A program made the translations under genes and the position numbers. Of a stretch of DNA of 64,000 bases, positions 1-63,854 are shown in pieces (positions within the stretch are counted from its first letter, which is position 1; every line of letters begins with the position of its first letter). The stretch comes from an uncultured virus (IMG/VR IMGVR_UViG_3300026081_000002) (taxonomy: Duplodnaviria > Heunggongvirae > Uroviricota > Caudoviricetes). The stretch is taken from the IMG/VR virus record IMGVR_UViG_3300026081_000002; one strand, given 5' to 3'. Under the pieces are notes generated by a model, which was given only the letters and a program-made list of their open reading frames with translations, was not told the DNA's origin and searched no databases.

Positions 1-14
1 TAGGAAGAAAACAC

Positions 15-17882: not shown

Positions 17883-17884
17883 AT

Positions 17885-17968: not shown

Positions 17969-17971
17969 AAT

Positions 17972-41010: not shown

Positions 41011-42416
41011 TGCCAGACATCGATTTTTACAGTACACCATACAAGTATAGGTTTGATAAAATATCAATCACTACTGAAAGAGGTGGTGGAAATGTATTTA
41101 ATGTTGAAAGAGTCGTAAGTGAATTAAATATATATGAGCACTTAGATAAACCTTTCCTCACCGCAACGTTAGCTTTAAATGATATTGATCCTAAAGTTAG
41201 TCTTTCTAATGAGATACATTTTATGGGTACAGAAAAAGTATCGATAGAAATAAGAACTTACCCAGGAAATGAATTTAAAATCACTAAAAATTTTGTAGTT
41301 AGTGAAGTACTTAAATCTCAAAAATCGAATGACGATAACGAGGTTTTTTTACTTCATCTTGTAGAGGACTGCGCATACGTATCGAGTCTTATGAGAGTTA
41401 CAAAGGCTTATAGAGATAAGAAAGAAAACATAATAAAGTCACTGATTGAAATGACTGGAAGAGAAGTATTATGGAATCCTGATAAACTTCCAGTAGGAGA
41501 TAAACTTACACGACTCATCGTTCCTAACTATACACCTTTAGAAGCTGCAAATTGGGTGAAGGATAGAATACATACCGAACTTGGATTTCCATATTTTTTA
41601 TATTCAACTATTGCAGATGATAATATAAGAATGCTAGATCTAGAATCTATGTTAAAAAAGGATGCTATAAATGAAACACCCTATTCATATACTTTAAACT
41701 CTGATCAAATACCTAATACAAGTAGATCTACTAAAAACAAAAATGATAGGACTAATATAATTGATGAGGCCTCATTTGTAATTAATTCATATAGTGTTGA
41801 AAGAGTAAACGATCATTTGAATATGGCTAGAAAAGGTTTTACTACATCAAAATATAATTTTATTGACACTACGTTTGGCGATAATCTAGAATTTAAATAC
41901 GAGGTAGTTGATACTTTTTCTAAAATGATAAACGATAATGTTTTAAGAGACGCAACAAAGTATCCTATATATGATTACTTAGCAGAATTTAATAATCAAA
42001 AAATACATGAGTATGATACAAGAGAAATAACTCACTTTGCAACTTCTCGACAGTTTAATGATTTCTTTGAATCTGAAAGTTATCATGAAGGTAGAAGTGA
42101 AACAGAACATAGAGCTAAGGTTGTTGCAAAAGCTTTGAGATGGTGGTTAACTAATTCATCTATGAATATCACTGTTCCAGGTAGAAATTTTATGCAGGCT
42201 GGAGATAACATGACTATTGGTAATATTATAAACGTGGCGTTTGCAGCCAATGTTGGACCAGATAGAACCATACGTTTAGAAGAATTAAAAGACCAACAGA
42301 AATCAGGAGATTATTTAGTTTATACGGCAAGACATAAGTTTTCAGGCGAAAGATATGATGTTAATATGACACTGTCAAAACTTGGAACACCTGCTATGGG
42401 TAGAGGATCCTACTAA
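41010..42416 (+). CDS. Putative baseplate hub protein (gp27 position)
   Basis: ELNIYEHLDKPFLTA, ITVPG, SGDYLVYTARHKF; between gp53 and gp5. Confidence 0.55.
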   Translation: MPDIDFYSTPYKYRFDKISITTERGGGNVFNVERVVSELNIYEHLDKPFLTATLALNDIDPKVSLSNEIHFMGTEKVSIEIRTYPGNEFKITKNFVVSEVLKSQKSNDDNEVFLLHLVEDCAYVSSLMRVTKAYRDKKENIIKSLIEMTGREVLWNPDKLPVGDKLTRLIVPNYTPLEAANWVKDRIHTELGFPYFLYSTIADDNIRMLDLESMLKKDAINETPYSYTLNSDQIPNTSRSTKNKNDRTNIIDEASFVINSYSVERVNDHLNMARKGFTTSKYNFIDTTFGDNLEFKYEVVDTFSKMINDNVLRDATKYPIYDYLAEFNNQKIHEYDTREITHFATSRQFNDFFESESYHEGRSETEHRAKVVAKALRWWLTNSSMNITVPGRNFMQAGDNMTIGNIINVAFAANVGPDRTIRLEELKDQQKSGDYLVYTARHKFSGERYDVNMTLSKLGTPAMGRGSY

Positions 42417-43321
42417 TGATAGATACGTGGAGAACAGATGTAAGTCCAAAGTCTTTGTATTCAGATTATGCTGGAGCTGACACTGTATGGTTTACAGGAA
42501 AGGTTATAAGTAATAACGATCCTATGAAACTTGGAAGAGTTCAAATAAGAATTTTTGGAATGCATAGTAATGATATAGGTGAAGTACCTACTAACGCTCT
42601 TCCGTGGGCGCAGACTTTGAATAGCGCTGGAGGTGGAGTATCTGGAATAGGAACATTTAGTTCAATGATTCCTGGTGCGTTTGTTTTTGGTATATTTTTA
42701 GATGGAAGACATGCACAGATTCCTTTTGTCATTGGCTTTAGTGAAACTTTAGAAGGTCCTTCAAATACACAAAAAACAGATCCTACAGCTCCTATATTTC
42801 CAGACAGAGATAAAAATAGAGACCCAATAGATACTCAGACACCGGTTGATATGACAGATGCTTTAGAAGGAGGATCTAACGCTGAAAAAATATTTAACTT
42901 CTATACATCAAATGGTTTTACTTCTGAACAAGCATCAGGGTTCATAGGTAACTTCTTTGCTGAATCTAACTTAAATCCAGAAGCCTTGAACCCAAATGAT
43001 CTAGGAAAACCAGCGTTTGGTCTAGCTCAGTGGAGAGGTGATAGACTAGAAAATCTAAAGAGTTGGTCAGAAGGTAGAGGTTTAGACTATAGAACATTAA
43101 AAGCACAGCTGCAGTTTTCTTTACATGAGTTAAGTGGTACAGAAAGAAATGCAGGTGCAAAGATTAGAAGAGCAGCAACTGCTAGAGAATCTGCATACGT
43201 TATGTGTAGGTATTATGAGAGACCTTCGTATGAAATAGTAAATGGAAACTACACTAGTCCTTCTCTAAGTTTAAGAATACAAGTATCAAAAGATGCTTAT
43301 GAAAGGTTTGCAAGAGCATGA
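42416..43321 (+). CDS. gp5: gp5 N-terminal OB-fold fused to phage tail lysozyme domain
   Basis: WFTGKV...DPMKLGRVQIRIFGMH, LPWA, VFGIFLDG; then GNFFAES, GLAQWRGDR, YYERP. Confidence 0.8.
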   Translation: MIDTWRTDVSPKSLYSDYAGADTVWFTGKVISNNDPMKLGRVQIRIFGMHSNDIGEVPTNALPWAQTLNSAGGGVSGIGTFSSMIPGAFVFGIFLDGRHAQIPFVIGFSETLEGPSNTQKTDPTAPIFPDRDKNRDPIDTQTPVDMTDALEGGSNAEKIFNFYTSNGFTSEQASGFIGNFFAESNLNPEALNPNDLGKPAFGLAQWRGDRLENLKSWSEGRGLDYRTLKAQLQFSLHELSGTERNAGAKIRRAATARESAYVMCRYYERPSYEIVNGNYTSPSLSLRIQVSKDAYERFARA

Positions 43322-44898
43322 CAGAGATTAATAAAGTACCAATTAGTAAAGTTAACAATACTCTAACAAGACTGCCAATAGCCGGCGAGTTCACAAAAGA
43401 GATTGAGAAGATGAACTTTGCTTCTCAACAGTATGCTTCTACGCAAGAGACTCAACTAGGAAAGAAGATTAATCAAGAACAAGGTGGAGTAACTGTTCTT
43501 ACTCAGTCAGACTTATATCCAGCTTCCGTTGGTGGTTCATCAGTTCCACCTATTGTACAAGCAGGAGTTGGAATGAAGTCAGATGAACTTCAGAACGGTG
43601 GAAAGAAAGAACTGCAGTATGCTACCGAGATTGGAAAAATGACACACTCTATGGTTACGATAATCGGAAGTGTTACAGGTAATGGTTATATACACTCTAA
43701 GATAATGTTAGGAACTCCACAAGCTATTAAGAATTCTTATTTTCAGACTGTAGGAAAAGAACCAGATCCTAGTTATGCACCTCAGTTTGCTCCTTCTTCG
43801 TTACAAGGTGCAGCAACTACTGCACTGACATCTATGAGTTCTGCTTCTGATTATTCATCACAGATCGCAAGTGTATCAAATAATGTTATTGAGGCAGTTA
43901 CTGGTCTTTCACAGAAAGTAGATTCACTCGTAGGTAATAAGAACTTAGGAGTAACACAAAGAGCAATACTTAAAACAGAAAATTATTTAGATGGATTCTT
44001 AAAGAATATATCACAAGGAACTCTTACCGAAGAAGAAACAGATAGAGCTACTGATCTGATTATTGCTGGAAATAATAGTCAGGTTATTGACATTGTCCAA
44101 GCAGCAGGAAGAAGAGAAAATAAAGATCTTGGAGATATTTCTGCACTTGAAAATTCTATTATGAGTGTTAATGCTTCTGCGGCAAGTTCTATTACGAATC
44201 AATCAAGTTCGTTTAATAATATGGGTGTATCAAGTAGGAAAACTAAAGACTTAGCTACTATATCTAATAACTGGAATGGTGCAAATACTCCAGCAGAATA
44301 TACTTTTGAGAGAGTACATAGTGTCGAAGAGTTAGTAGCAGAACTTAGATCTGTAACAAGACCAATAACAGAAACTATTGTACACTGGACAGCAAACTTT
44401 AACGATCAAGGTCATATAGGTGCTAGAGAAATACATAACATAGGATTAAGAAGAGGCTTTGCAGGATGTAGTTACCACTACGTTATAAAAAGAAATGGAA
44501 ACATAGAAAGAGGACGGCCAGTAAATATAAAAGGTGCGCATGCTCGAGCAGCAGGCCATAACAATAACAGTATAGGAATATCATTTGTCGCAGGTTATAA
44601 CTGTCCTACTGGCACACCTAATCCAAACAGATACATAAGTGCTGAATCAATTACTCCAGCTCAGTTTGCCGCTTTAGATTCTTATCTAAAAGCTTTCTTT
44701 ATGGTATATCCAGGTGGTCAAGTCTTTGGACACCAAGACTTTGACAGTAATAAGCCAGATCCGGGATTTGATGTTGGAACTTATATCAAATCCAGATTTA
44801 ATAAAGTAAATGTTTCAAATCCTAATAATGGTCCTATAAGTGAAACTCAGATGGCGAGCATTCTTGCAGAGACAACTCAAGGTGAGACTATAGCATGA
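43318..44898 (+). CDS. Virion protein with C-terminal N-acetylmuramoyl-L-alanine amidase (Amidase_2)
   Basis: IVHWTA, YHYVIKRNGNIERGRP...GAH, SIGISFVAG, FGHQD. Confidence 0.85.
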   Translation: MTEINKVPISKVNNTLTRLPIAGEFTKEIEKMNFASQQYASTQETQLGKKINQEQGGVTVLTQSDLYPASVGGSSVPPIVQAGVGMKSDELQNGGKKELQYATEIGKMTHSMVTIIGSVTGNGYIHSKIMLGTPQAIKNSYFQTVGKEPDPSYAPQFAPSSLQGAATTALTSMSSASDYSSQIASVSNNVIEAVTGLSQKVDSLVGNKNLGVTQRAILKTENYLDGFLKNISQGTLTEEETDRATDLIIAGNNSQVIDIVQAAGRRENKDLGDISALENSIMSVNASAASSITNQSSSFNNMGVSSRKTKDLATISNNWNGANTPAEYTFERVHSVEELVAELRSVTRPITETIVHWTANFNDQGHIGAREIHNIGLRRGFAGCSYHYVIKRNGNIERGRPVNIKGAHARAAGHNNNSIGISFVAGYNCPTGTPNPNRYISAESITPAQFAALDSYLKAFFMVYPGGQVFGHQDFDSNKPDPGFDVGTYIKSRFNKVNVSNPNNGPISETQMASILAETTQGETIA

Positions 44899-46916
44899 CA
44901 ACAGAAAATAAAGAACTCGAACTAAGAATACAAGAAGAAGGAATAGCAAAAGTTGAGGCTGAAGGTCGACCTGCTGATGCGTTTTCTGATCCGACTGGTC
45001 AGTACCCTCGTCACGGATATCACGGAGAACAAGGTGTTAATAAAGCAGCAAGAGGTGATGCTGTCAATGAATTAGATTTGAGAAACGGAATCCCAGGAAT
45101 AAACACTGACCTTGCTCAAAGAGTATCAACTCAATATCCGCTTGCAAATACTACCGAATCTGTTTCAGGTCACATAATAGAAATAAACGATACTCCCGGT
45201 GGAGAACGTATTATTATAAGACATAATACTGGCGCCGGAGTTGATATTAAGAGTGATGGAACTGTCATTGTTAATTCTAAGAGTAATAAAGTAGAAATCG
45301 TAGATGCTGATAGTCGTATGGTGGTTGAAGGAAGTGGAAACATTTCATATTATGGAAACTTAAATTTAAATGTCTCAGGCGATTATAATGTGACAGTAGG
45401 TGGTAACTATAACTTAAAGGTAGCAGGTAATTGGATAGTTAATGTTATTGGATCATTTAAGACGACAGTTGCTGGACTAATGTCTGAAGTTGTACAAAAA
45501 TCAAAGTCTGTCATTATATTAGGACAACTAACTCAAACATACTTATCAAATGTAAATCATTTTGTAAAAGGTACTTATCAACATTTTATAAAAGGTAATG
45601 CCGACTACAATCACGGTGCTGTAACTAAGTTTACTTCTCAACTAGAAGTTGATGTTAGTTCACCTAATATTAATATAGCTGGAGATAACATTAATATTCT
45701 TTCAAATGGTGGTACACAAGGTGGAGAAAACGTAATTAAGTACGGTAAGAACATGTATCTTGGAGAGAACTTAGAAAGTAAAACAGTTACAACAACTGCA
45801 GCAAGAGCGGTAACCTTTATAGGTGATTTAAACGGAACTGCACGTGGATCTCTACAAGCTTCTACTGCAGGTGGTCTCGGAGCCGTAAGTGTTCAAGCGC
45901 CTGTATTTAATACAACTGCTGCGGATACTACCAAGACAGAAAAACCAACTTCAGCAATACTAACAGAATATTTAAACCATACTGATCTCGGTATTAAGCG
46001 CGTAAGCATTGATGAAGATAATTCTATTAAGAACTACTATGATAAAACAATTACAAGTGGTGGTATAACTGATAGAGCTCTTGATATTAGAGAGGTTAGA
46101 TCTAGACTTAAATCTTCTTCAGTAAGATCTAACAAAACTTTTATAAATGATAGAATGGCGGCAGGTGTACTAAACTCAAATTTTGTAAATACAGTTCCTA
46201 TAGAAATAGGAAGAGTAAGAGGTGAAGGATCAACAGTAAGAATAGGTCAAAATATTATTGGACAGAAGGGAAGAACACTTATTGACAATAAGTTTAAACC
46301 AGCAGATGCAGCAGCAGAAGCGAAAACTTTTACGTTTCCACTAGAAGCACAGTATAATCCAGATAATCAAGAGGTAATTACTCATTCTACTTTACTTGGA
46401 AAAGGAATTCCAATTTCTAAATTTACCGGTAGCGTAGGAAATAAAACTACGTTGAATCATATTACTACTCAGGACGAAAAGAAACAGATTGCTAGAAACT
46501 TATACGTCCAATCACAAGTTATTAAGAACTTTTACGCCTTAGATATATTCAAAAACTATAACTTAGTAGTCGCAGAAGGTTTATATCAGGCTGGACCAGA
46601 TGAAACACCAACAGGCTTTAACGACTTAGCACAAACAGGAAGAGCTGTCGCTTATGAAGTATACTCAGCGGACGGAGTAATAGCACTTGATAAATTATAT
46701 GACTACGCAGAATTTTTAAAAGATACTTTTAGTTATGATAAGATCGGTCTTGCTTATGATACTTATAACAAGAACGGAAGAGTTCATGGTCAACTTATAG
46801 TAGAAATACCTACTATTCCTTCTTCTTTCACAGCAACGTTTTCAATGAAACTAGAAACTACGTTCAATGGAGAAATTCAAAGTTCATCAGATTTAGTTGA
46901 AATTGTATATAAATAG
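44895..46916 (+). CDS. gp5 C-terminal part (beta-helix spike) with extra C-terminal domain
   Basis: DP.GQYP, YP.A...ESVSGHIIEINDTPGGERI..RH, V.G.Y/W repeats. Confidence 0.75.
   Translation: MTTENKELELRIQEEGIAKVEAEGRPADAFSDPTGQYPRHGYHGEQGVNKAARGDAVNELDLRNGIPGINTDLAQRVSTQYPLANTTESVSGHIIEINDTPGGERIIIRHNTGAGVDIKSDGTVIVNSKSNKVEIVDADSRMVVEGSGNISYYGNLNLNVSGDYNVTVGGNYNLKVAGNWIVNVIGSFKTTVAGLMSEVVQKSKSVIILGQLTQTYLSNVNHFVKGTYQHFIKGNADYNHGAVTKFTSQLEVDVSSPNINIAGDNINILSNGGTQGGENVIKYGKNMYLGENLESKTVTTTAARAVTFIGDLNGTARGSLQASTAGGLGAVSVQAPVFNTTAADTTKTEKPTSAILTEYLNHTDLGIKRVSIDEDNSIKNYYDKTITSGGITDRALDIREVRSRLKSSSVRSNKTFINDRMAAGVLNSNFVNTVPIEIGRVRGEGSTVRIGQNIIGQKGRTLIDNKFKPADAAAEAKTFTFPLEAQYNPDNQEVITHSTLLGKGIPISKFTGSVGNKTTLNHITTQDEKKQIARNLYVQSQVIKNFYALDIFKNYNLVVAEGLYQAGPDETPTGFNDLAQTGRAVAYEVYSADGVIALDKLYDYAEFLKDTFSYDKIGLAYDTYNKNGRVHGQLIVEIPTIPSSFTATFSMKLETTFNGEIQSSSDLVEIVYK
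46908..46915 (+). promoter_or_regulatory. T4-type late promoter
   Basis: TATAAATA upstream of 46950 ORF. Confidence 0.65.
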
Positions 46917-46949
46917 AAGTATCATTAACTTATAACCACGGAGCAGCAT

Positions 46950-47348
46950 ATGACCTATCCTACCGAAGAAATGATCTCAATGATGGAAAATCTTAGAGAA
47001 CAAGCTAACGACATGGAAAAGCATGTAAAGAATATGATCGAAGCTCAAGGAAGAGCTTCTGGAATTGAACTTGATAAAAGAAAGAACGCAAGAGACCTCA
47101 TGGATGAACTTCATGAACACCAAGTAAATGAGGGTATGTGTATGGAAAACGGACATCCGGAAAATCAACAAGAAATGATGTGGGCTTATGTACCTAACAC
47201 TGAGGTTCATTATGATCTAACAAAAGATGAACACTATGATCCAGCAGACTATCAAGAAATGAATATAGTCGATGAAGATGATTGGGAAGATTATGATGGA
47301 TATGATGATGATTATGCTGCAATGCCAGATGACGGAGTGAAAGTTTAA
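46950..47348 (+). CDS. Acidic, Met-rich hypothetical protein
   Basis: GGAG SD, own late promoter. Confidence 0.6.
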   Translation: MTYPTEEMISMMENLREQANDMEKHVKNMIEAQGRASGIELDKRKNARDLMDELHEHQVNEGMCMENGHPENQQEMMWAYVPNTEVHYDLTKDEHYDPADYQEMNIVDEDDWEDYDGYDDDYAAMPDDGVKV

Positions 47349-47351
47349 TAA

Positions 47352-47816
47352 ATGGTAGCTCGAGCAAATGCAGTTGAAGATGGTAAACTAACATTTCCGG
47401 TTCTGAACAGTTCTAGGATCAGACCTAGTTCAGACATCGATCTGCTCTTTGCTCCGAAAAGAAAATCACAAACTGGAGAAACCGGTGATATTTTTAAGAA
47501 GTTTGATGCCGCTGCAGTCAAGCAGTCTGTTAAAAATATTGTAATGACTAATATTGGTGAAAAACCATTTAATCCTAGGTTCGGCGGAAATGTCACCGGT
47601 TTACTCTTTGAAAATTCTGATCCAACTTTGAAGAAAGATTTAGAAGCTCATATAGTTTCATGTTTAGAAACTTATGAACCTAGAGCTGAGAATATAAACG
47701 TAGAGATAGACGATACAGCGATTGATAATAATTATTTAAATGTGAGAGTAGAATTTGCTATTGTTAACTCTCTAGAAACTGTGTCAATACAAACAACGAT
47801 AGCGAGGCTAAGATAA
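47352..47816 (+). CDS. gp25: Baseplate wedge subunit gp25
   Basis: AVKQSVKNIVMTN.GEKPFNPRFGG...LFE...YEPR. Confidence 0.9.
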   Translation: MVARANAVEDGKLTFPVLNSSRIRPSSDIDLLFAPKRKSQTGETGDIFKKFDAAAVKQSVKNIVMTNIGEKPFNPRFGGNVTGLLFENSDPTLKKDLEAHIVSCLETYEPRAENINVEIDDTAIDNNYLNVRVEFAIVNSLETVSIQTTIARLR

Positions 47817-49651
47817 TGGCAACTAATATAACATCAACTCAATTAGACTTTGATAATATAAAAAATCGATTGAAAACTTTCCTTGCTGCAAAAACAGAGT
47901 TTGCTGATTATGACTTTGAAGGATCTGGACTGTCAAATATTCTTGATGTATTATCGTACAACACTCACTTCAATGGTCTTATAGCTAACATGGCTCTAAA
48001 TGAATCTTTCTTACATACTGCTCAATTAAGGTCATCTCTTATTACTCATGCAGAAGCTCTTGGTTATAATATTAGATCTAAAGCTTCCTCTCAGGTTTCT
48101 TTTACTGCTTCGGTTAATTTGTCAACTATTTCTCCTAGAGCAACGTCATACAGTCTTCCAATAAATTCTACTATAATTTCAACTAATGAAGAAGGAACTT
48201 TTAATTTTAGAACTAGAGAACTTTATACTGCAACAGACGATGGTGCAGGTAACTATGTGTTTACCGATATAAATGGCAGCACAATATTAAATGCGTTTGA
48301 AGGAGAGATAATAACAAAAACTTTTTATGTCGGTCCTAAAACAGAAAGACGGGTTTATGTTGTGCCTGATGAAAATATAGACACAACTACTGCTATAGTA
48401 AAAGTATTTCCTTCAGCAAACTCAACAACTTTTCAAGAATATACTGACTTGAGTAAAGCTATAAAGGTTGATTCTAATTCGCAGTACTATACACTCAGAG
48501 AAGCTCCTAATGGTAAGTTCGAATTGAATTTTGGTGATGGTGTTACGTTTGGTAAAACTCCAGATTCAGGAAGTAAGATTGTAGTTGAATACTTAAGAAC
48601 AGAAGGAGCAAAAGGTAACGATTGTAAAACATTTACAACAAATGTTGAGATAGCAACTCGAGCAATTGCAATAGTTCCAACATCATCTTCTGGTGGAGGT
48701 GGTGATAAACAATCACTGGAATCTATAAGACAACTTGCTCCGTCTGCATTTGCCACTCAGCAGAGACTTGTTACTTCAGAAGATTATAGAGCAACCATAA
48801 CTGCTAATTTCCCTACAGTGAAAGACGTTTCAGTTTGGGGAGGAGAGGATAACATTCCTATTGACTATGGTAAAGTCTATATAAGTTTAGATTATAATCC
48901 AGGACTCAGTCAATCTGCAAAAAGTATTATTGAGAACAGAATAAAAACTGACTTTTCTGATAATCTTTCGGTCATGTCAATAACACCTCAGTTCATTGAT
49001 CCTGTAGTGTGCTATATTGAAATGGTAACTGAGTTTTATTATAACCCTGACTTGACAGGTAAGACTGGAGTTACTCTAGAAAACAACATAAGATCGATTA
49101 TTCAAACATATTTCACATCCGACATTAGTGGATTTGGAAAAACTTTTAGAAGATCGAACTTACTGACCGACATCGATGCCGTTGATTCTGCTATATTAAA
49201 TTCTAAGATGGATATTAAAATGCAGCTGAGACTTACACCTACTCTAAACATAGGTCAGAATTATAGTATAGTATATCCTGTAAAACTGGCTACACCTGAT
49301 GATGTATACTACAGGATAGAATCTAGTATGTTTGAATATACGGGTGCTTCAGGGAACTGTAAGATTGTAAATGTACTTGGATCTAACGTATTAAAAGTTG
49401 TTAACATAAGTAAAAATAATGAGACAGTAGTTGATAACGTAGGAAACTATAACAGCAAAACAGGAACTATAAGTCTAGACAACTTTAATCCTACTACAAT
49501 ATTGAGTGGTGTCAATTATATTAAATTTTCTGCTACACCCGATAATCAAGCTATACTGAAGTCTCTTCGAAACTTTACATTTGACTTTGATTCAGACAAG
49601 TTTGTTGTGTCTGCGCAAGTAGATAGAGAAAACGTGAGAGTATCATTATAA
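47816..49651 (+). CDS. gp6: Baseplate wedge subunit gp6
   Basis: LDFDNIK, DYDFEGSGL..LDVLSYNTH, FGDGV.FG, QQRLVTSEDY, WGGED...YGKVYI. Confidence 0.92.
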   Translation: MATNITSTQLDFDNIKNRLKTFLAAKTEFADYDFEGSGLSNILDVLSYNTHFNGLIANMALNESFLHTAQLRSSLITHAEALGYNIRSKASSQVSFTASVNLSTISPRATSYSLPINSTIISTNEEGTFNFRTRELYTATDDGAGNYVFTDINGSTILNAFEGEIITKTFYVGPKTERRVYVVPDENIDTTTAIVKVFPSANSTTFQEYTDLSKAIKVDSNSQYYTLREAPNGKFELNFGDGVTFGKTPDSGSKIVVEYLRTEGAKGNDCKTFTTNVEIATRAIAIVPTSSSGGGGDKQSLESIRQLAPSAFATQQRLVTSEDYRATITANFPTVKDVSVWGGEDNIPIDYGKVYISLDYNPGLSQSAKSIIENRIKTDFSDNLSVMSITPQFIDPVVCYIEMVTEFYYNPDLTGKTGVTLENNIRSIIQTYFTSDISGFGKTFRRSNLLTDIDAVDSAILNSKMDIKMQLRLTPTLNIGQNYSIVYPVKLATPDDVYYRIESSMFEYTGASGNCKIVNVLGSNVLKVVNISKNNETVVDNVGNYNSKTGTISLDNFNPTTILSGVNYIKFSATPDNQAILKSLRNFTFDFDSDKFVVSAQVDRENVRVSL

Positions 49652-50478
49652 TGAGAACGCCTATTGAAAAGTTACTTGACTATAGGAGTAATGTACAATT
49701 TTATGATAACTCGAAAGTACCTCCAAAAGAGGATATTGAACATATACTCAATACTGTACATGAGAGGATGCCTCACATAAACATGAGATGGCACTATAAT
49801 ATAGATGTGTTAGGTCCTGATCATATAGATGAAAAAAGAAAACTTGCTGTTTCTTCTGTCTGCGCCACGGATCCAGATTTTTGGAGAGGAGATGATGTAA
49901 CAGTAGAAGATTGGGAAAGAGCTGAGAAAGTTTATGATAAATGGAGAGATTATCAGACTAGTCCAGAGAAGTGGAACAAAGATCATTGGGAATATGATCA
50001 TGAATATGACATGGTATCACCAGGAGATGGAATAGAAGACAATACAGAATTCTTAGGGTTTAACGAACAGGTGACAGCACCTTGGGTTCTAATGTACACA
50101 CCGGCTCTAACGACTCTTCATCCAAGCATAAAGGAGAAAGCTAAAGAAGAGTTACAGTACGGTGGTTGGAATGAGAGTGTACACAAAGGTGAAATTGAAT
50201 GGGAAAATCTGATGTGTCAACTTGGTCAACACAGTACTTTAGTAATGTTGCTTGCTCTGGAAAAAGGTTACGATGTTTCTTATACTAGGTGTTTAATTTT
50301 TACAGATGACTTGTTTGATGATACGAGACAATGGTTAGATCATCGAAAGCCTAGATTTGCACTATCTATTGGGTACCCAATGTTACCGAGAAGATCTCAT
50401 TCAACAAACACTAACTTGCCGCCGTGGCCTAATAGAGGAATACCTCGACCGGATATAGAAGACATAGTAAAATGGTAG
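49651..50478 (+). CDS. Nitroreductase-like protein
   Basis: RSNVQFY...PPKEDIEHIL, APWVL, LALEKGYDVSY, LSIGY. Confidence 0.55.
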   Translation: MRTPIEKLLDYRSNVQFYDNSKVPPKEDIEHILNTVHERMPHINMRWHYNIDVLGPDHIDEKRKLAVSSVCATDPDFWRGDDVTVEDWERAEKVYDKWRDYQTSPEKWNKDHWEYDHEYDMVSPGDGIEDNTEFLGFNEQVTAPWVLMYTPALTTLHPSIKEKAKEELQYGGWNESVHKGEIEWENLMCQLGQHSTLVMLLALEKGYDVSYTRCLIFTDDLFDDTRQWLDHRKPRFALSIGYPMLPRRSHSTNTNLPPWPNRGIPRPDIEDIVKW

Positions 50479-51620
50479 AAAAAACAACAAAAGATTTTAA
50501 TAGATTAGACATAGGATTTCAAAAAGGAATCGTAAAAGATGTTCTACCTTCATACTTTACGACGGACTATCCTAATCTTATTTCTTTTCTAGAATCTTAT
50601 TATGAGTTTATGGATAGTGATGGAGAGTTTGGTCAACTGGTCAATGATCTATATACAGTAAGAGATATAGAAGATGCTTCACTCAGTCACTTAGACAACA
50701 TGTTTAAAGAATTTGCGCTAGGGATGTCGCAAGACTTCTTTACAAATCCTAGAGAAATACTTAAAAACTTTGCAAGGTTCTTTAGAGTAAAAGGATCTAA
50801 GTATTCAGCGGAAGGATTTTTCAGAGGATTCTTTGGTGAAGATGCTGAAGTCCATTATCCAAAACAAGATATTTTTATGGTTGGCGATTCCGCATCTCAA
50901 CTTGGATCTGATAACGTACATGTTCTTCAAGACGGAGGAATATATCAGATCTTATCGATAATGATTAAGTCACCGATAGCATTTGGTAAATGGGGTGAAC
51001 TCTATAAAAAGTTTGTCCATCCAGCAGGATTCTTTTTATCAAACGAAGTACAAATAGTTACTCAAAAATTTGAGAATTTTGCTGGCGGAATAGCAATATT
51101 TGATTCTCATCCTTATCCAAATGACGTATACTACCCCCCAGAGTATCCGCGACTGGTGTTTGATGACACTATAGGTATTGTTACAACATCGTTTGCGGAT
51201 ACAACTTTACTTCAAAGGATGGGAAGAACTGCTTATATTAGAGATTCTGCTCAAGGTACAGAAGTTAATTATCCTCTCATATCTGATTCAGATCCAACAC
51301 ACTTGAGAAACTACGAATTCGGATTAAAAGATTCTACAACGTACTACACAGATTATAATCCAGGAAATAATCCAGTCTTTATAAGAAGATTAAATCCAGA
51401 CGTTGTGATAAGACCGTACTCAGACCCCGCGAGAGCCGCCCTTATCACAGAAATAGATAATAGATACTCAAGTATATTTGAATGGACAATGGCAGGATCT
51501 CAGTATTTTGATAGATCTGATTCTACCGGTTATAGTTCAGGACCAAGATTTAGCAACACAGATGAAACTATGGATGAAGATATATATGATTCTGGAAATA
51601 GTTACGTACAAATAGTATAA
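50472..51620 (+). CDS. Baseplate wedge subunit (gp7-like)
   Basis: LPSYF..DYP.LI.FLESYYEFMD, KGS..S...FFR, VHPAG. Confidence 0.7.
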   Translation: MVEKTTKDFNRLDIGFQKGIVKDVLPSYFTTDYPNLISFLESYYEFMDSDGEFGQLVNDLYTVRDIEDASLSHLDNMFKEFALGMSQDFFTNPREILKNFARFFRVKGSKYSAEGFFRGFFGEDAEVHYPKQDIFMVGDSASQLGSDNVHVLQDGGIYQILSIMIKSPIAFGKWGELYKKFVHPAGFFLSNEVQIVTQKFENFAGGIAIFDSHPYPNDVYYPPEYPRLVFDDTIGIVTTSFADTTLLQRMGRTAYIRDSAQGTEVNYPLISDSDPTHLRNYEFGLKDSTTYYTDYNPGNNPVFIRRLNPDVVIRPYSDPARAALITEIDNRYSSIFEWTMAGSQYFDRSDSTGYSSGPRFSNTDETMDEDIYDSGNSYVQIV

Positions 51621-51651: not shown

Positions 51652-53034
51652 ATGGCAGCTATAGTAACTGATAGATTAAAACTCAAGATAGTTGATAGTA
51701 TTGTTACTGCATTTAAAGATGCTAGCATTCCACACTACGTTGGTCTAGGAAGATCAGAATATTGGAACGCACTTGATACTGTCGTAACTCCCGTCAATAC
51801 GGCAAAAGAAGAAAGAGATTTTATGGCAGGACTTCAGTCTATAAAGAGGCTGACTGGAGTATCACATGTCATTAAGAGAGTTAACTGGGTAAAAGGTACA
51901 ATATATCACCAGTGGGATGACACTAAGACTTCATACACTAATGACTTCTATGTACTGAACGATAACTTTCACGTTTACATATGTTTAAGAACAGGTAGGA
52001 ATGCACTAGGAAATGAAGTTCCTTCACTGATTCAACCTACAAATTCTAATAATGATCCTTTCCAAACGTCTGATGGATATGTATGGAAGTTTTTATACAC
52101 TATAAGTGAACTTGAAGCAAGACAATTTATGACAGCTGCGTGGATGCCAACTCGAGTCATTACTGCTACCGACTCAAACTCTTCTGGTGTAGAAATAAAA
52201 CAAAAAGAGATTCAAGATACCGCACAACCTAGAAGAATAACTTCAATAGTTCTAGTCAATAAAGGAACAGGATATAATTCTGCTCCATCAGTAAGTGTGG
52301 TTGGAGTCGATGCAAGAGGAAACTCATTAGATTCTGCACAACTTGGATTAACATCGACTATTGATAGCCAAGGTAGAATTGCAAAGATAGAATTTAATAC
52401 TGATTCAAGTACTCTTGACTATGGTCTAAATGAATATGCAAATGCTACTATTACGATTGGCGCGCCTGATAGTGCAGGTGGAGTGCAAGCAACAGCGAGA
52501 GCAGTGATAAGTCCAAGAGCAGGATTTGGTGCTAATGCTATGCATGATCTTCAAACATCTGGTTTTGCTTTACATTGTAAAATAGATGGTGCTGATGATG
52601 ATTTTATTTTAGGAAACGATTTTAGACAGATTGGGGTTATTCAACGACCTAAGAAAATGCAGGCTGCAGATTCTGATTTTATAGGAAACACTGGACTAGT
52701 TCTAAAACACTTAAAAACTAATATGCCACCGAACAATGTATTTAGTGTTGATAAACTTATAGTAGGTGCATCATCAGGTGCAAAAGCATATGTAGATAAA
52801 GTCGACTCAGATAAAATATATTATCACCAAACAGACGTAACTGGTTTCACACTTTTTCAAGATGGAGAAGTTCTAACAGAAAGTAATGGAACTGGAAATG
52901 GTACTATCGATAGTGCTAGAATTGATGGAGAAGTTCTTCCTTATTCTGGAGATCTATTATATTTAAACAACAGAGGAGCAATAGAACGCTCCACAAATCA
53001 ATCCGAAGATATAAAAATAATTCTTCAGTTGTAG
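51652..53034 (+). CDS. gp8: Baseplate wedge subunit gp8
   Basis: YVGLGR, FYVLN..FHVYICL, DGYVWKFLYTI, DFRQIG, SGDLLYLNNR..I.R...Q.EDIKIIL. Confidence 0.88.
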   Translation: MAAIVTDRLKLKIVDSIVTAFKDASIPHYVGLGRSEYWNALDTVVTPVNTAKEERDFMAGLQSIKRLTGVSHVIKRVNWVKGTIYHQWDDTKTSYTNDFYVLNDNFHVYICLRTGRNALGNEVPSLIQPTNSNNDPFQTSDGYVWKFLYTISELEARQFMTAAWMPTRVITATDSNSSGVEIKQKEIQDTAQPRRITSIVLVNKGTGYNSAPSVSVVGVDARGNSLDSAQLGLTSTIDSQGRIAKIEFNTDSSTLDYGLNEYANATITIGAPDSAGGVQATARAVISPRAGFGANAMHDLQTSGFALHCKIDGADDDFILGNDFRQIGVIQRPKKMQAADSDFIGNTGLVLKHLKTNMPPNNVFSVDKLIVGASSGAKAYVDKVDSDKIYYHQTDVTGFTLFQDGEVLTESNGTGNGTIDSARIDGEVLPYSGDLLYLNNRGAIERSTNQSEDIKIILQL

Positions 53035-58190: not shown

Positions 58191-58412
58191 ATGAAACTAG
58201 TTAGAATAAACGGACAGAAAGATTTGGCTAAAGATGAAGAGACAGGTGCCGTCTTAAATACAGACGTTGAACAGGTTGAACAGGCCAGAGAAATAAAGGA
58301 AAAAAGAAAAGAAAAAGAAGACGAGTTTACACGACTGCAGGAAGATGTGAGTGAACTCAAGATGATGATGAAACAACTATTAGAAAAAATGAGTAAGGAA
58401 GAAGATGGCTAG
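58191..58412 (+). CDS. Conserved small coiled-coil protein
   Basis: LAKDEETGAVLN...ELKMMMKQLL. Confidence 0.65.
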   Translation: MKLVRINGQKDLAKDEETGAVLNTDVEQVEQAREIKEKRKEKEDEFTRLQEDVSELKMMMKQLLEKMSKEEDG

Positions 58413-58647
58413 AAAAACTTATGTTGATCTAAGCGATACCATTGAAGCTTGGCGAGTAAAAACAAATTTAATTTCTTCAAATGTAGGAGACTTAGACAGT
58501 TTAGCAACTGCTCTTCCTGACTCAGATCTCGTACACGCAATCAACTATGTTTACAACGAAAACATCAGAGATATTAAGTTTGATATTCTTAAGTCTGATG
58601 GATCACTTGTAAAAAGGGTATTCGGTTATACTGACTCAGGAGTATAG
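58405..58647 (+). CDS. Small virion/fibre-associated protein
   Basis: V..SDTIEAWRVKTN...GDL..L...DLV.AIN. Confidence 0.6.
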   Translation: MARKTYVDLSDTIEAWRVKTNLISSNVGDLDSLATALPDSDLVHAINYVYNENIRDIKFDILKSDGSLVKRVFGYTDSGV

Positions 58648-58650: not shown

Positions 58651-59712
58651 ATGGCGTTTCGCAGGCCCTTAAAAATCCACTATCCTACAAAAGATTTGAA
58701 GGAGATGTCAGACTCTGACATTCTTAGCCTGCGTCATCGTGCAATTTATTGTTATGGTACAGACCCCTCAGTAAAACTTAATTATGTTAATGATTCTGGT
58801 AACTTAGGAACTATGATCGATCAAAGAAGTATTGCTGGTGCTGGACAAACAAGTTTAAATGACGCTTTAAGTAATAAAACATCATTGACTTCTATTAGCT
58901 GGTCAAAAATTAATTTGCAATTTGACTCTAGCTTTACAGGAGGAATTGTAGATTCCGGAAGTCAATTTCCAGTCTATTGGGATAGTGCCAATGACGCGAT
59001 AAGAGCGATGACTGATTCAGATTTTTATGATACGATTACGAGACCTGCGATTGATATATTAACAAACGGATCGTTAACTAATAAACAAGCTGGAATATTT
59101 CACTTCTCAACCGACAGTGCTTCTGATTCAGATTCAACGCTAGTAACTTCTAATCCTATTTTTATCGATACTGTTGCAGACGTGGAAGCTTATAGAGTAG
59201 GGAGTTTATATGAAACTATAGATCAGCCTAAGACTTTAGAAAAGTATTACTTGCATAAGATGAATGCTGATTCTTCTATCTCACCTGGTAATCTTCTTCC
59301 TAAGTTATTAAAGATATATCAGAACACGGCTGACTCAAATCATGTTGGTGTACAAGAATACGATAGTAGTGGAATGGATGACATTTTATGTAAATCTATA
59401 AATCACACTGCAAAAAATGATTCGCAGGGATACTGTTTAAGATATTTACTCGATTCAGATGGATCTGGATCTGGCTTACAAGTTGGTACTTCTATATTGG
59501 ATAAAATATACGAAGGAGAAAGAATGAGGAAAGACAACTCTGGTAAGTATCAAGTAGTACCAGCAGGAGATAGTCATAATCTGTACAGCGGATATGGGTA
59601 CGGTTATGGATACGGATATGGATACGGGTACGGATATGGTAGTCCAGATTCCGATAAAACTTTGACTATAAATAAAACATACTCACTAAAGGTTACAAAA
59701 GGAATATGCTAA
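58651..59712 (+). CDS. Virion structural protein, Asp-Ser-rich, with (GY)8 tract
   Basis: RRPL.....DLKEM N-terminus; located in structural operon. Confidence 0.6.
   Translation: MAFRRPLKIHYPTKDLKEMSDSDILSLRHRAIYCYGTDPSVKLNYVNDSGNLGTMIDQRSIAGAGQTSLNDALSNKTSLTSISWSKINLQFDSSFTGGIVDSGSQFPVYWDSANDAIRAMTDSDFYDTITRPAIDILTNGSLTNKQAGIFHFSTDSASDSDSTLVTSNPIFIDTVADVEAYRVGSLYETIDQPKTLEKYYLHKMNADSSISPGNLLPKLLKIYQNTADSNHVGVQEYDSSGMDDILCKSINHTAKNDSQGYCLRYLLDSDGSGSGLQVGTSILDKIYEGERMRKDNSGKYQVVPAGDSHNLYSGYGYGYGYGYGYGYGYGSPDSDKTLTINKTYSLKVTKGIC
59590..59640 (+). repeat. (Gly-Tyr)8-Gly coding repeat
   Basis: GGN TAY x8 with varied synonymous codons. Confidence 0.9.
59667..59674 (+). promoter_or_regulatory. T4-type late promoter (internal to 58651-59712)
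   Basis: TATAAATA 31 nt upstream of the Cys-rich ORF. Confidence 0.55.
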
Positions 59713-59838: not shown

Positions 59839-60279
59839 ATGGCTATATTTTCTGAGACGTTTATTGATGCGCATTTTATTGATGCTCGAAAATCTCATAT
59901 ATCGATATATTACAAAAATAAAAGAGGGCAGACAGTTAACTACTACATACCGTGTACGTGGGAGCACCCTGATTTTCAAGATTTACAGAAACTTATTTCT
60001 CTCGAAGATCTTGAGAAAAAATTAAATCAATCCAGAAAAAAAGCAAGAGAAGATAAAATTGAGAGACTTACGCAACCTCTTGATGACATCGATACTATTT
60101 TCGATTTTCTAGTAGAGAACGGAAATAACGTTAGGTACTTATTTCCTATGAAAGTAAAAGTACTGCAGTTAGATCAAGTAAAAAAATCAAAGTCAAAGTT
60201 AATAAAAAATAAAATTCAAAAAAGTAAAAACATTCTTGAACTTATGGGAATTGTTGGAAAGGTGATGAGTGGCAAATAA
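59839..60279 (+). CDS. Hypothetical protein
   Basis: 146 aa, AAGGA SD. Confidence 0.6.
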   Translation: MAIFSETFIDAHFIDARKSHISIYYKNKRGQTVNYYIPCTWEHPDFQDLQKLISLEDLEKKLNQSRKKAREDKIERLTQPLDDIDTIFDFLVENGNNVRYLFPMKVKVLQLDQVKKSKSKLIKNKIQKSKNILELMGIVGKVMSGK

Positions 60280-61024
60280 AATTGTATATATGAGATGGGG
60301 TGAACTGTACACTGAAGATCATGTTAGTAAACTAGAAGAACAGGTAAATAAGAACTGTTCTGTTGATTATGAGTTTTGTACTATGGAGTCCTGTCATAAA
60401 GGTTCAGCGTTTGATAGAATGCAGGAACTACAAGATCGTTTTTATAGAGGAGGAATGAATCCGGAATCTTCTATTACAGAAAGAGAGGATTCAAACTTCG
60501 AGAGAGAAGATGCTGGAGGATTTGCTCACTTTCGCAAGTATCTCATGTTTATGAGAGACAAAGAAGAGTTTAAGGAAGGAGATGTTATACTGTACATCGA
60601 TCTTGATACACTTGTAACTGGTGACTTAGCATACTTTTTTGACTTGGATATGGAAAGGCCGTGGATAACAAGAAGTTGGCAGTTCCAAGAAGGATTCAAA
60701 TGGAAAAGATTATATCACCTAAGAAGCTGTCCATACTTTAATAGTTCTGTCATGGTTTGGAAAGTTGGACAGAACATGACAATATTTAATGAGCTGACCA
60801 ATCCGGATCATGATGAAGCAGTATTCTTTCAATACGGAATAAACGACAACTGGTTATTTCATAGATTTGGCCCTAATGCTTATGATGAGACTAGAAGAAG
60901 CTGGTTCAATTTCTTTGAACCTGAAGTTGTAGTTTCAGATAAAAGATTTCTAACAAGTAAAACACTAATACATACTTTAGCTGGTATGACAATGATAGAA
61001 AAAAATAAATTATGCTTACAATAG
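60269..61024 (+). CDS. Putative glycosyltransferase (GT-A)
   Basis: MRWGELY, LYIDLD, YFNSSVMVW. Confidence 0.65.
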   Translation: MANKIVYMRWGELYTEDHVSKLEEQVNKNCSVDYEFCTMESCHKGSAFDRMQELQDRFYRGGMNPESSITEREDSNFEREDAGGFAHFRKYLMFMRDKEEFKEGDVILYIDLDTLVTGDLAYFFDLDMERPWITRSWQFQEGFKWKRLYHLRSCPYFNSSVMVWKVGQNMTIFNELTNPDHDEAVFFQYGINDNWLFHRFGPNAYDETRRSWFNFFEPEVVVSDKRFLTSKTLIHTLAGMTMIEKNKLCLQ

Positions 61025-61710
61025 ACAAGATTAATATTAATAATGCTTTAGTAGATACTCTTTCTCAGATGGATAATAATTATCCACATAGAAAAGAAGA
61101 TTTTTATAAAGCTCTACACCCATACGTTTTAGATCAATGGATATGGGCTTCAGAAGAATTAATGAGACACTTTATATTTCCTGAGAAAATGGAATGTGAA
61201 AATGCTAACGTGTTTGCAGGTGGCTATTGTTTTTATCCAGGACACTTCTGGAAAAAATGGGGACTGAAGAACGTGTTTCTGTATGACTTAGATCCTGAAA
61301 TAAAACCTGTTAACTGGAGTTGTTTAGAGTATATACGAGATTATGTTAACATTGACCAAAAATCTCTAGATGTTTTGATAGATGATCAGTTTGTTTCAAG
61401 AGATAACATTGACATGGTTATTAATTTGTCATGTGAGAGTATGTACGATATGAAACACATTATAAAGAAAGGAACTTATCCTAAGAATACTATATTTGTA
61501 TTTCAAGGAACTGACAAGATTCAAAGAGGAAACATTAATGTTCATAAGACAATAGAAGAGTTTGAACAATCTACATCATTTGGAGAAGATGATATTTTAT
61601 TCAGTGGTGAGAGAGATGTTAATTTTGGAAATTATAAAGGAAGTGGCGCTCACAAAAGATTTATGGTGATTGCAAGGTATAACTATGAAAAACAGGATAA
61701 TTTGCAGTAA
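61012..61710 (+). CDS. Methyltransferase-fold protein (NxSCE family)
   Basis: FAGGY, YDLD, VINLSCESM, NINV. Confidence 0.5.
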   Translation: MLTIDKININNALVDTLSQMDNNYPHRKEDFYKALHPYVLDQWIWASEELMRHFIFPEKMECENANVFAGGYCFYPGHFWKKWGLKNVFLYDLDPEIKPVNWSCLEYIRDYVNIDQKSLDVLIDDQFVSRDNIDMVINLSCESMYDMKHIIKKGTYPKNTIFVFQGTDKIQRGNINVHKTIEEFEQSTSFGEDDILFSGERDVNFGNYKGSGAHKRFMVIARYNYEKQDNLQ

Positions 61711-62335
61711 ATGGGGTGAGACGTTTGATGATAGTGATGTTAACACTTTACATCGTCAAGTAGAAGCTAACTGCTCAGTTCCATTTGATTTTATATGCTA
61801 TGATAAGTTCAAGCATGATCTTTCTAGATTTGTGCCGCACAATAGAAAGGATCATCATGTAGATGATCAAGGTGGGTTGAGTCACTGGAGAAAATTAACT
61901 CTGTTCGATGATGTTCATTTTGGAGAAGATGATAAGATATTATATCTAGACTTAGACGTTGATGTTAAAAGTGACTTAGCATATTTTTTTGAGTTAGAGA
62001 ACGATAATCCTTACATAATATGGAACCACTGGTGGGAAAGAAAACCTGAAGAGTGGTTAAGACAATATCATCAAGCAAGATGTCCATTGTATAATAGTTC
62101 TACATTGTTATGGAAGACTGGACAGAACAGGGCAATATTAGCGTTCTTATTGGCACATGCTGAAGAGATATTCTTTACGTATAAAAGAATAGACACTTTT
62201 ATGTTTCACTGCTTTGGTCCTCACAGTACAAGAGATCACTTTAAATATTTTGATGAAGGTATCATAACTTCGCACAGGTTGGTTGGTGATTCGAATCCTG
62301 GGATCATTCACTCATATGAAGGAATACTACATTGA
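61685..62335 (+). CDS. Putative glycosyltransferase (paralog of 60269)
   Basis: CSKWGETF, WRKLTLF, LYLDLD, YNSSTLLW. Confidence 0.65.
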   Translation: MKNRIICSKWGETFDDSDVNTLHRQVEANCSVPFDFICYDKFKHDLSRFVPHNRKDHHVDDQGGLSHWRKLTLFDDVHFGEDDKILYLDLDVDVKSDLAYFFELENDNPYIIWNHWWERKPEEWLRQYHQARCPLYNSSTLLWKTGQNRAILAFLLAHAEEIFFTYKRIDTFMFHCFGPHSTRDHFKYFDEGIITSHRLVGDSNPGIIHSYEGILH

Positions 62336-62964
62336 ATTATTGGGAAGGGTTAGACGACATTGATAGAGAATGGGCTTCTCATCGTTGGCAAAATATTCTT
62401 TCGGAATACGGTGAGGCAAAGCCTTTCTTTATGCATAATCTTAGAGAAGAATCTTCTGTAACAGAATATCTAATTCAAAAATATTGGATGGGCATCCATA
62501 CAAAAGGAGAAAAAATAAACATACTAAATTCAGGATTAAGTTTTTGGTCCGTTCCGTTTGCGGCAGAAAAAAATGCAGCTGCAATTCATACGTATGACAT
62601 GTGTCCTCTTGCTGACAAATTATCTTGGATCGCAAATAAACAATACTCAGCAATTCATACACATCATAAAATTAATACAGTATTTGATACCGATCGTATA
62701 GAACTCGATGCTGGTGTTTGGATAAACACAAGCTGCGAACACACTTATCCTGTACATGATATTATTCCAAAAGGCGCGACTTGTGTTTTAAGTGGAAACA
62801 ACTTAAAGAAAAGAGGTCATATTAACTTAATAAATAGCCTTATGCAACTAAAAGTCCAAGCTAATCTTTCAAAGATAGAATCTCAAGAAGTGATGGTGTT
62901 CGATTATGAAGATGAATTAGGAAAAAGAGAATACGAACAGTTTATTATTATAGGTAAAAAATGA
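62332..62964 (+). CDS. Methyltransferase-fold protein (NTSCEH family)
   Basis: YDM, WINTSCEH, GHIN; TTG start. Confidence 0.5.
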   Translation: MNYWEGLDDIDREWASHRWQNILSEYGEAKPFFMHNLREESSVTEYLIQKYWMGIHTKGEKINILNSGLSFWSVPFAAEKNAAAIHTYDMCPLADKLSWIANKQYSAIHTHHKINTVFDTDRIELDAGVWINTSCEHTYPVHDIIPKGATCVLSGNNLKKRGHINLINSLMQLKVQANLSKIESQEVMVFDYEDELGKREYEQFIIIGKK

Positions 62965-63854
62965 AAAGAAGAGTTATATTCACAATCTATATTGATATTC
63001 CAGAGCACTTACTCGATGAATCTGGTTATTCTAGACATGCAAATGTAAATAGACATAGGGCAAATAGAGCAGGTGAAACTAAGGATAAACTAAGTGTTTA
63101 TAAAAACAAACTTATGTGGACACAAAAGAATTATGCAGACATATGTGATGCAGACTATAAGATATTCATAAACAACAAGCAGTGGGTAGACTATTATCTC
63201 TCAATGAAGAAAGTTCATGAAGGACTTCCTATGTATCATATTGTTAACTATTATAAGCATCATCTACTATATGAATTATCAAAAGACTATGATGAGGTTT
63301 TTTATGTAGATCTAGATATTATCCCGGTCACAGAAGAAAACGTATTTGAAGAGCATGACTTATCATACTTTTGGGCTAAGAATAATAATGAGTTAGCTGA
63401 GTGGGGAAAAAGATTTGACTTGTCAAAGTATGATAGTTGTGATAGGAATCCTGCAATTAAATATTGGAACTGCTATGCACTATTACTTCAGGAAGGATTT
63501 GAACCAGAAAATGATGTTATTAATACTGGAACTATGTTAGGTGGAAGAGAAGTTCTTCAAGAAATAAACTGGCCTGAAAAGTTTCCGATCATGGTAGAAA
63601 AGTTAAAGAAGCTACAAGATGATGATGAGACTATGTTTCCTCCAGCACTCCATAGTAGGTTTGCATTTGACAATGAAACAATGACAAGTTATCTTGTCAA
63701 ATCAGAAAATTTTAAATATGCAAGTCTTTCAGATGAGTGGCACGGTAGATTACCAGACAATGGAATTGATCCTAATCATAAAATCATTCATGCTATTAAT
63801 AAAAGGTTTGAATTTATTTGGCCTGACGTAAATTTTGAAGGAAGAAAGTTTTAA
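62961..63854 (+). CDS. Putative glycosyltransferase (paralog of 29614)
   Basis: QKNYADICDADY, YYKHH, EVFYVDLD, INTG, DNE. Confidence 0.6.
   Translation: MKRRVIFTIYIDIPEHLLDESGYSRHANVNRHRANRAGETKDKLSVYKNKLMWTQKNYADICDADYKIFINNKQWVDYYLSMKKVHEGLPMYHIVNYYKHHLLYELSKDYDEVFYVDLDIIPVTEENVFEEHDLSYFWAKNNNELAEWGKRFDLSKYDSCDRNPAIKYWNCYALLLQEGFEPENDVINTGTMLGGREVLQEINWPEKFPIMVEKLKKLQDDDETMFPPALHSRFAFDNETMTSYLVKSENFKYASLSDEWHGRLPDNGIDPNHKIIHAINKRFEFIWPDVNFEGRKF

Follow-up and report, generated by a model that had tools for sequence, protein, structure and literature searches.

Why do 16 of the 34 Asp residues of a 353-aa protein encoded in the tail operon of a marine virus immediately precede Ser (hereafter DS)? 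The protein lies within the window, by which we mean the whole stretch of DNA analyzed here, namely the first 64 kb of a virus contig of 73,834 bases, a T4-like myovirus fragment carrying the baseplate operon. The genes for gp32, gp48, gp53, gp5, gp25, gp6, gp7/8 and VrlC were found in the conserved order, which identifies a T4-like myovirus, and the nearest isolate was phage C48C1 (33% identity by gp8 and 38% by gp6). The source is an uncultured marine T4-like phage lineage, C48C1-related and Kyanoviridae-like. The initial annotation, based on hand counts, proposed DS as a candidate virion O-glycosylation sequon, by analogy with that of Bacteroidetes, which the adjacent glycosyltransferase (GT) genes would use. 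The proteins concerned are given below, with +2 standing for the position after Ser and small for D, A, S, N or G, a set that was chosen from the outer-family data.

58651..59712, plus strand: tail-operon protein with no PHROG/Pfam assignment, 353 aa; 16 DS, 13 of them DS[ADSNG]
58405..58647, plus strand: short member of a fibre-like family, 80 aa; 3 DS
51652..53034, plus strand: gp8 baseplate wedge; 9 DS, 7 with small +2; the chief marker of enrichment across the clade
50472..51620, plus strand: gp7-like wedge protein; 8 DS, 5 with small +2
3..1634, plus strand: fibre/connector-like protein, truncated at its 5' end; a small +2 residue follows all 10 DS
3724..5511, plus strand: unannotated, probably structural protein, 595 aa; 10 DS, 5 with small +2
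1939..3708, plus strand: unannotated protein, 589 aa; 8 DS, only 1 with small +2
39239..49651, plus strand: inner baseplate genes (gp48, gp53, gp27-like, gp5 pieces, gp25, gp6); DS avoided in these families clade-wide

With its 44 Ser, the 353-aa protein is expected to contain 4.24 DS (hypergeometric p 1e-7 for 16), the observed number was reached in 0 of 200,000 shuffles, and DS was the top dipeptide of the protein. The hand counts proved exact on recount here and in the proteins at 3-1634 (10 vs 2.5 expected, p 4e-4, 5' end open), 3724-5511 (10 vs 3.9, p 0.003), gp8 (9 vs 2.9, p 0.001) and the gp7-like protein (8 vs 3.0, p 0.005), each of which exceeds expectation. The count of 3 in the 58405 protein was also correct but is not significant alone (1.0 expected, p 0.057); its fibre-like family as a whole showed 271 observed/92 expected before dereplication. 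The excess in the 1939 protein was borderline, and this protein is probably no target because a small residue follows only one of its DS. As initially noted, gp32 and Gmd contain no DS and gp48 contains one. No DS excess was found in VrlC (10 vs 10.8 expected) or gp6 (4 vs 3.9) of the window. Two genes past the window, to which the initial annotation had no access, repeat the excess, at 65292 (15 vs 5.6) and 68346 (47 vs 12.7) of G000. The latter (G000:C1 68346-73834), a large gene of fibre-like type, runs off the end of the contig, and its DS stand in register with 10-residue repeats.

The 353-aa protein is presumably an outer virion protein, judging from its position in the tail operon and its N-terminal similarity, the first 140 residues resembling the beginning of a 1,250-aa repeat protein. 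Its homolog in Pelagibacter phage Mosig is 29% identical and has 0 DS. Among 15 chosen orthologs, ten carry 0-3 DS and five carry 7-16; therefore, the fold does not need DS. Any given DS site of the protein recurred in at most 6 of 16 sequences. Near its end, nine Tyr-Gly pairs with mixed codons stand in a run (window 59580-59645), and such runs are short or missing in relatives.

The claim that the motif belongs to the protein and not to a DNA repeat holds. Each of the 12 possible Asp-Ser codon pairs is used, and DS counts in the five remaining frames were 8-19 vs 7-17.5 expected, which rules out a DNA repeat or a codon artefact. The excess also stands beside its controls: in the DS-rich proteins of the genome, SD was at expectation, ES below it, and DT reached 23 vs 37.3 expected. 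DS[ALVIMT] made up 48 of 132 DS in these proteins, the same as the background share of 0.37. In the outer families, the residues enriched at +2 were D (7.0), A (5.9), S (3.2), N (2.9) and G (1.9), with L, I and V at 0.6-0.7, while in the inner families the same five residues were scarce (0.2-0.5) and L, I and V were spared; the inner-outer correlation of the +2 profiles was -0.44 (p 0.055). DT followed by a small residue amounted to 166/235 (observed/expected, as in all such pairs below) in the outer families. The motif is D-S-[A/D/S/N/G] and not the Bacteroidota sequon, given the lack of DT enrichment and of any preference for bulky residues at +2. A phosphopantetheine-type site, which we take DSL to be, was rejected since L at +2 is not enriched.

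We compared orthologs thinned to <70% identity (80 of 172 kept for gp8 and 59 of 96 for gp6), with clade and outgroup (cyano-, pelagi- and other phages) assigned by tree and identity; the borderline loci L058, L099, L188 and L098 were put in the outgroup from the column-composition test onward. The DS excess of gp8 was clade-specific, with 372/170 in the 53 clade sequences vs 88/83 in the 27 outgroup sequences (p 8e-9; like all z and p values here, this overstates independence since related sequences were used). The DS of gp6 went the opposite way (clade 66/161 vs outgroup 54/64, p 9e-5), and neither SD nor DT differed significantly between clade and outgroup in this comparison. With column composition fixed, none of the 273 dipeptides in clade gp8 was as over-paired as DS (296 against 198 expected, z 12.4), for which z was 1.3 in the outgroup. 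Clade gp6 showed the reverse, DS being the most under-paired of its 263 dipeptides (59 against 91, z -5.2, compared with -1.4 in the outgroup); alignment could inflate the gp8 co-selection figure but should not create the gp6 avoidance. Lineage-specific insertions in gp8 contained 22 DS vs 7.9 expected in the clade and 17 vs 16.9 in the outgroup. Changes of DS in gp8 by parsimony (182 vs 154 for SD) were not distinct from those of SG or SA.

The same two-way pattern extends over the tail, if, as we assume, the inner and outer labels of the families follow the T4 baseplate structure. Dipeptides were ranked in 56 of 220 families (at least 8 thinned members each, at most 45 members). DS was top in five outer families, namely gp8, the gp7-like protein, a gp9/10-like family, a short-fibre family and the 64566 family. 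Among the roughly 240-360 dipeptides ranked in each of eight inner families, it fell within the bottom 2-18; these families were gp27-like (lowest, 1 of 335), gp6, two gp5 pieces, gp25, gp48, tube and gp5-OB, and most enzyme families and many non-structural ones were DS-neutral. DS followed by a small residue (DS-small) reached 985/219 (4.5-fold) in the outer families of the main clade vs 30/37 (0.81) in the outgroup, and 60/213 (0.28) in the inner families vs 34/36 (0.95). Neck and sheath proteins of eight genomes were also enriched (21/5.4, 28/4.4 and 31/12.0, figures without a proper outgroup). The DS feature is real and strongly selected.

The depletion is found in intracellular proteins of the phage as well. 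The polymerase, helicase, scaffold and UvsX together had DS-small counts of 2/31.7 (main clade) and 2/15.4 (C48C1 subclade), against 32/40.6 for the 16 outgroup phages, and DS with other +2 residues was normal. Counted as distinct alignment columns, the ratio of small to other +2 residues was 4:40 in the clade and 22:54 outside (chi-square about 6.5, calculated by hand). Among 173 dipeptide-plus-small classes, DS ranked second to IF, and the clade-outgroup difference of IF-small was as large as that of DS-small. The capsid showed a DS-small excess (31/10.0) that the outgroups share (20/9.3). In the major capsid protein, DS-small sites cluster in a short variable segment (residues about 128-161 in G001, G004, G007, G011-G014 and L533-L537).

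DS could be a lineage-specific building motif, such as an Asx-turn, a helix N-cap or a 10-residue fibre repeat, that was spread by duplication and descent, with the GTs remodelling host LPS. Part of the fibre DS counts is indeed repeat expansion (the 10-residue repeat of 68346 and the C48C1-type helical repeats), a few gp8 DS columns are old and shared (present in 37, 26 and 24 of 51 sequences), and distinct DS and SD columns in gp8 are equal in number (64 each). In the model of the 353-aa protein, the DS sites lie at turns and helix starts, but this model (pLDDT 47.6, from 14 sequences) is not good enough to assess exposure or to search by fold. GTs of this kind have been read as O-chain modifiers, according to the cited part of PMC7029224. 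Such a motif would, however, leave unexplained the purge from inner and replication proteins, in which DS with other residues is spared. The turn-equivalent NS and DT are avoided rather than exchanged in clade gp8 (z -3.2 and -2.8, ES being under-paired as well), and the same folds lack the excess in the outgroups and in many orthologs. We regard this explanation as improbable. As a structural motif explains the excess and not the +2-specific purge from replication enzymes, a cytoplasmic reader is probable, i.e., something in the infected cell probably reads the motif.

The reader need not be an enzyme. DS-small may serve non-covalent docking or metal binding, with Ca, Fe or a decoration protein of the phage as the partner, which would be an advantage at the surface and a drawback in other places, and Asp is the most favoured +2 residue in the outer families. 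The sites are nonetheless dispersed, Thr cannot replace Ser, neither Glu nor Asn replaces Asp, metal binding would not purge single polymerase sites, and no candidate reader protein was found. Docking or metal binding therefore appears to us a slim prospect, and we judge with considerable confidence, from the distribution of the motif, that D-S-small is read by some covalent modifier.

The genes that could supply such a modifier, or its sugars, are as follows.

15615..16271, plus strand: Maf/GT42-fold protein, 218 aa, candidate writer; single copy, conserved across the clade
14304-14963, plus strand: GT25-like gene in the cassette directly upstream of the candidate writer; candidate chain extender
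14950-15627, plus strand: GT8-like gene upstream of 15615, in a slot exchanged between lineages; candidate chain extender
5569..13699, plus strand: variable sugar cluster (GT-like 5569, cytidylyltransferase-cupin, methyltransferases, GDP-mannose dehydratase, two GT25)
60269..63854, plus strand: GT8-like and methyltransferase-like cluster beside the 353-aa protein; common to DS-neutral phages
25450..26232, plus strand: DAHP-synthase-I-family gene; found in only 2 of 25 records

The adjacent cluster, to which the initial annotation had assigned the decoration of DS sites, does not track the motif. Homologs of the 59839-63854 cluster occur in Mosig, G003, L057, L058, L063 and L064, in whose outer proteins DS-small is at expectation. 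Since each gene at 60269-63854 has homologs in DS-neutral phages, the cluster is not supported as the writer and was rejected as the determinant. The 62961 and 14950 genes were dropped as writers because the only isolate matches were DS-neutral phages, Mosig and HTVC008M, respectively. Beside 15615, the 14950 gene was missing from 5 of the 17 records with strong DS, and 3 of the 8 weak records had it.

We compared the gene content of large contigs to find clade-bound genes. The gene at 15615-16271 was the only enzyme-like one that is single-copy within the clade and missing outside, and three further genes with no enzyme annotation were equally clade-bound. One copy was found in C48C1 and in 8 of 9 large clade contigs, the exception being G004 (46% complete), and none in G003 and G008 (both partial) or in any of the 16 complete outgroup phages. 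Among 50,697 phage records, there was one strong match, in C48C1 (E 8e-45), and a weak one to a gene annotated as sialyltransferase in DSL-LC06. Of the 34 records with 15615, 12 also had gp8, and each of these gp8 proteins (two near-identical) contained 5-9 DS vs 2.2-3.9 expected. As the gene and the motif are confined to one clade, their co-occurrence counts as a single evolutionary event. The weak homolog (L370:27869-28663, OR003941) lies within a GT cluster of an unrelated phage of 29.8 kb, which has one tail-region protein with 9 DS vs 3.4 expected, possibly an independent case or chance.

The predicted structure of the 15615 protein (pLDDT 86.5) matched best the flagellin O-glycosyltransferase Maf of Magnetospirillum (5mu5; Z 11.2, rmsd 3.3, 161 residues aligned, 11% identical), aligning to residues 271-505 of 632. 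Next came Cst-I (Z 10.0), SteA (Z 9.4) and the diphosphokinase MptE (Z 9.1), and mammalian sialyltransferases gave Z 6.9-8.3. In Foldseek, sialyltransferases ranked first at E 3e-3, with no match at E <= 0.001. PF01973 was hit in 55 of 103 family members, weakly and below the cut-off, and PF00777 weakly in 9 of 103; sequence searches of solved structures with 62961 and the 15615 profile gave no significant match. The aligned family members have about 200-230 aa. The gene closes a cassette with the GT25-like and exchangeable GT8-like genes, of which it is the conserved member. On this structural prediction, it is a plausible protein O-glycosyltransferase and the best candidate for the writer; given that Cst-I, SteA and MptE lie near Maf and that no Foldseek match reached E <= 0.001, it could instead cap a glycan or not transfer sugar at all.

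The motif may accordingly be a modification site with another writer or chemistry: the chain may be started by a GT25, a GT8 or a host enzyme, leaving only the capping step to 15615, or the adduct may be phosphate-like. The two-way signature requires only a reader, GT25-like genes were present in all near-complete clade genomes compared, and the fold of 15615 also fits glycan-capping sialyltransferases and MptE/thiamine diphosphokinases. Against this, the GT8-like partners are swapped between lineages and present in DS-neutral phages, the conserved cassette member is 15615, and no kinase was found among the window proteins scanned; GT25 genes also occur in cyanophages (a table in PMC12801897). 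We consider another writer or chemistry rather unlikely. That D-S-[A/D/S/N/G] is the acceptor sequon, its Ser being O-glycosylated by a phage cytoplasmic enzyme, probably the Maf-fold 15615-16271, strikes us as evenly poised between true and false, given the motif statistics and the structural model.

The reading of DS as a virion glycosylation sequon therefore stands in part. Its sequon-like behaviour (clade-specific, gained in loops, purged inside and intracellularly) is borne out, and its Bacteroidota analogy and neighbouring GT cluster are not. Virion assembly is cytoplasmic, which speaks against modification of the virion by the general O-glycosylation system of a Bacteroidota host. D-S is the core of the sequon of that system, D-(S/T)-(A/I/L/V/M/T); yet its targets are non-cytoplasmic, Thr is also an acceptor, and L, I, V and T are preferred at +2, as given in the cited part of PMC12871550, while here DT is low and I, V and L at +2 show no enrichment outside and are spared inside. 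We hold such a host origin to be very improbable. The phage motif resembles the Bacteroidota one in that Asp directly precedes the acceptor Ser and Glu is no substitute (ES being low here), but the analogy fails beyond these two letters: there is no Thr excess, and the +2 residue is small or polar, not hydrophobic, with only A and S in common. Bacteroidota O-glycosylation is lipid-linked and periplasmic, whereas the phage system would be cytoplasmic and phage-encoded.

CMP-Kdo is made by LPS-bearing bacteria, and for the donor it is our simplest guess. Among 25 records, CMP-sugar synthetase and NeuB were found in none and the DAHP/KdsA-family gene in two; therefore, the donor would be the host's. 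The gene of the latter family at 25450-26232, which we take to be KdsA-like, is a possible boost to the Kdo donor. Maf enzymes transfer sugars, Kdo included, from CMP-sugars to Ser/Thr in the cytoplasm and can do so with Kdo in E. coli, according to the cited part of bioRxiv 10.1101/2020.06.03.131540, and 15615 may do likewise. The likeness lies in the GT42-like catalytic fold (PF01973/DUF115), which is also that of the sialyltransferases Cst-I and Cst-II, whose known acceptor is a glycan. Unlike the multi-domain 5mu5, 15615 is a bare catalytic-type domain. Flagellar O-glycosylation is described as having no known sequon in the cited part of PMC12871550, and the substrates here would be virion proteins. 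By analogy, the phage system would correspond to the cytoplasmic O-glycosylation carried out by Maf enzymes, supplemented by a sequon, although by architecture it is not Maf proper.

We envisage that the Maf-fold enzyme would act in the infected cytoplasm on any accessible D-S-small with a host CMP-sugar, most simply CMP-Kdo, and that this first sugar may be lengthened by the exchangeable GT8- and GT25-like enzymes encoded nearby. In gp7, gp8, the neck, the sheath and the fibres, selection would place new sites in loops, and the resulting coat of acidic sugar would affect how the particles adsorb or disperse, or how well they withstand proteases or grazers. Selection would remove sites where a sugar would block interfaces or activity (gp6, gp25, gp27, gp5, tube, scaffold, polymerase and helicase). 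That an abundant marine T4-like clade runs its own sequon-directed cytoplasmic O-glycosylation in full, with a minimal Maf-fold enzyme, Kdo of the host or a similar acidic sugar, hundreds of sites on the outer surface, sites purged elsewhere and host cytoplasmic proteins maybe hit, is a tentative proposal to which we give somewhat less than even credence.

Freeman et al. 2023 reportedly dealt with virion glycosylation in mycobacteriophages. In these phages, subunits of the capsid and the tail tube bear C-terminal glycans added by the phages' own GTs (cited part of PMC12619734), and their self-glycosylation is also cited in PMC12582341, as far as its cited part goes. The phage considered here would likewise decorate its own virion with its own GTs; it differs as a T4-like myovirus with many internal motif sites on the outer baseplate, neck, sheath and fibres and with a purged tube. 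The GTs in host recognition clusters of pelagimyophages and cyanomyophages have been assigned to modification of host LPS or DNA (PMC7029224 and PMC12801897, in the parts cited). These clusters are also placed between VrlC and neck genes and have similar GT8, methyltransferase and radical-SAM content, but Mosig and HTVC008M possess such genes with neither the motif bias nor 15615. The titles and abstract openings searched, largely from outside subscription journals, contained no account of T4-like phages with an Asp-Ser bias or with glycosylated virions.

If true, the proposal would add a sequon-directed cytoplasmic O-glycosyltransferase to what a 2025 review presents as the only motif-driven bacterial O-glycosylation, that of Bacteroidota (PMC12871550, cited part). 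Marine T4-like phages carry many GTs, to which the cited parts of PMC7029224 and PMC12801897 ascribe, untested, the remodelling of host LPS or DNA, and the predicted acceptor motif, the candidate writer and the cultured relative C48C1 together make virion self-glycosylation a testable alternative. Glyco-engineering would gain a useful tool in an enzyme of 200 residues paired with a tag of three, and sugar-coated tails would matter for how these viruses adsorb and decay and for finding them in ocean proteomes. Searching for such two-way signatures of a motif offers a general route to hidden modification systems by sequence alone.

The C48C1 subclade fits the proposal less well. A search with the C48C1 ortholog of 15615, WJE88024.1, gave 26 further records, 13 of which had gp8; five of these proteins contained 8-9 DS, and the remaining eight, belonging to the C48C1 subclade, 0-6. 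In this subclade, 15615 is intact, yet the outer families reach only 67/33, part of which is SDSD repeats; the inner families show weak depletion of DS-small (27/39.6), with the other DS as low (48/78.3). Three of its nine genomes had no DS-small-rich protein within the 40-60 kb read. Only the purge from replication proteins persists there, in few and closely related sequences. The gp6 of the window itself has small residues after all 4 of its DS.

The subclade also possesses a repeat protein of 880-2,750 aa, the start of which resembles the 353-aa protein (L465, L468, L471, L473, L475, L478, L480 and L482), with 6 DS against about 53 and with 34 SD. In C48C1, a helical repeat protein (L001:15242-19948, WJE88066.1) has DS in its N-terminal repeats and DG or DA in the later ones. 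A baseplate-hub-region gene of the window (43318-44898) encodes an amidase domain where T4 has lysozyme; it was found in five DS-rich contigs and not in C48C1, G003 or G008. Contigs of the clade and its near relatives (L093-L099) were binned with bacterial or archaeal metagenome assemblies of unrelated taxa, probably through contamination. Elsewhere in the window, there are three tRNA genes (17806-18045; Arg-TCT, Tyr-GTA and Gly-TCC), a 75-aa ORF distant from the tail operon that matches only the N-terminus of gp9/gp10-type connectors (18092-18319), and genes for a class 3 lipase (19813-20553), a radical SAM protein (27213-28148) and a dihydroorotate-dehydrogenase-like protein (28881-29627).
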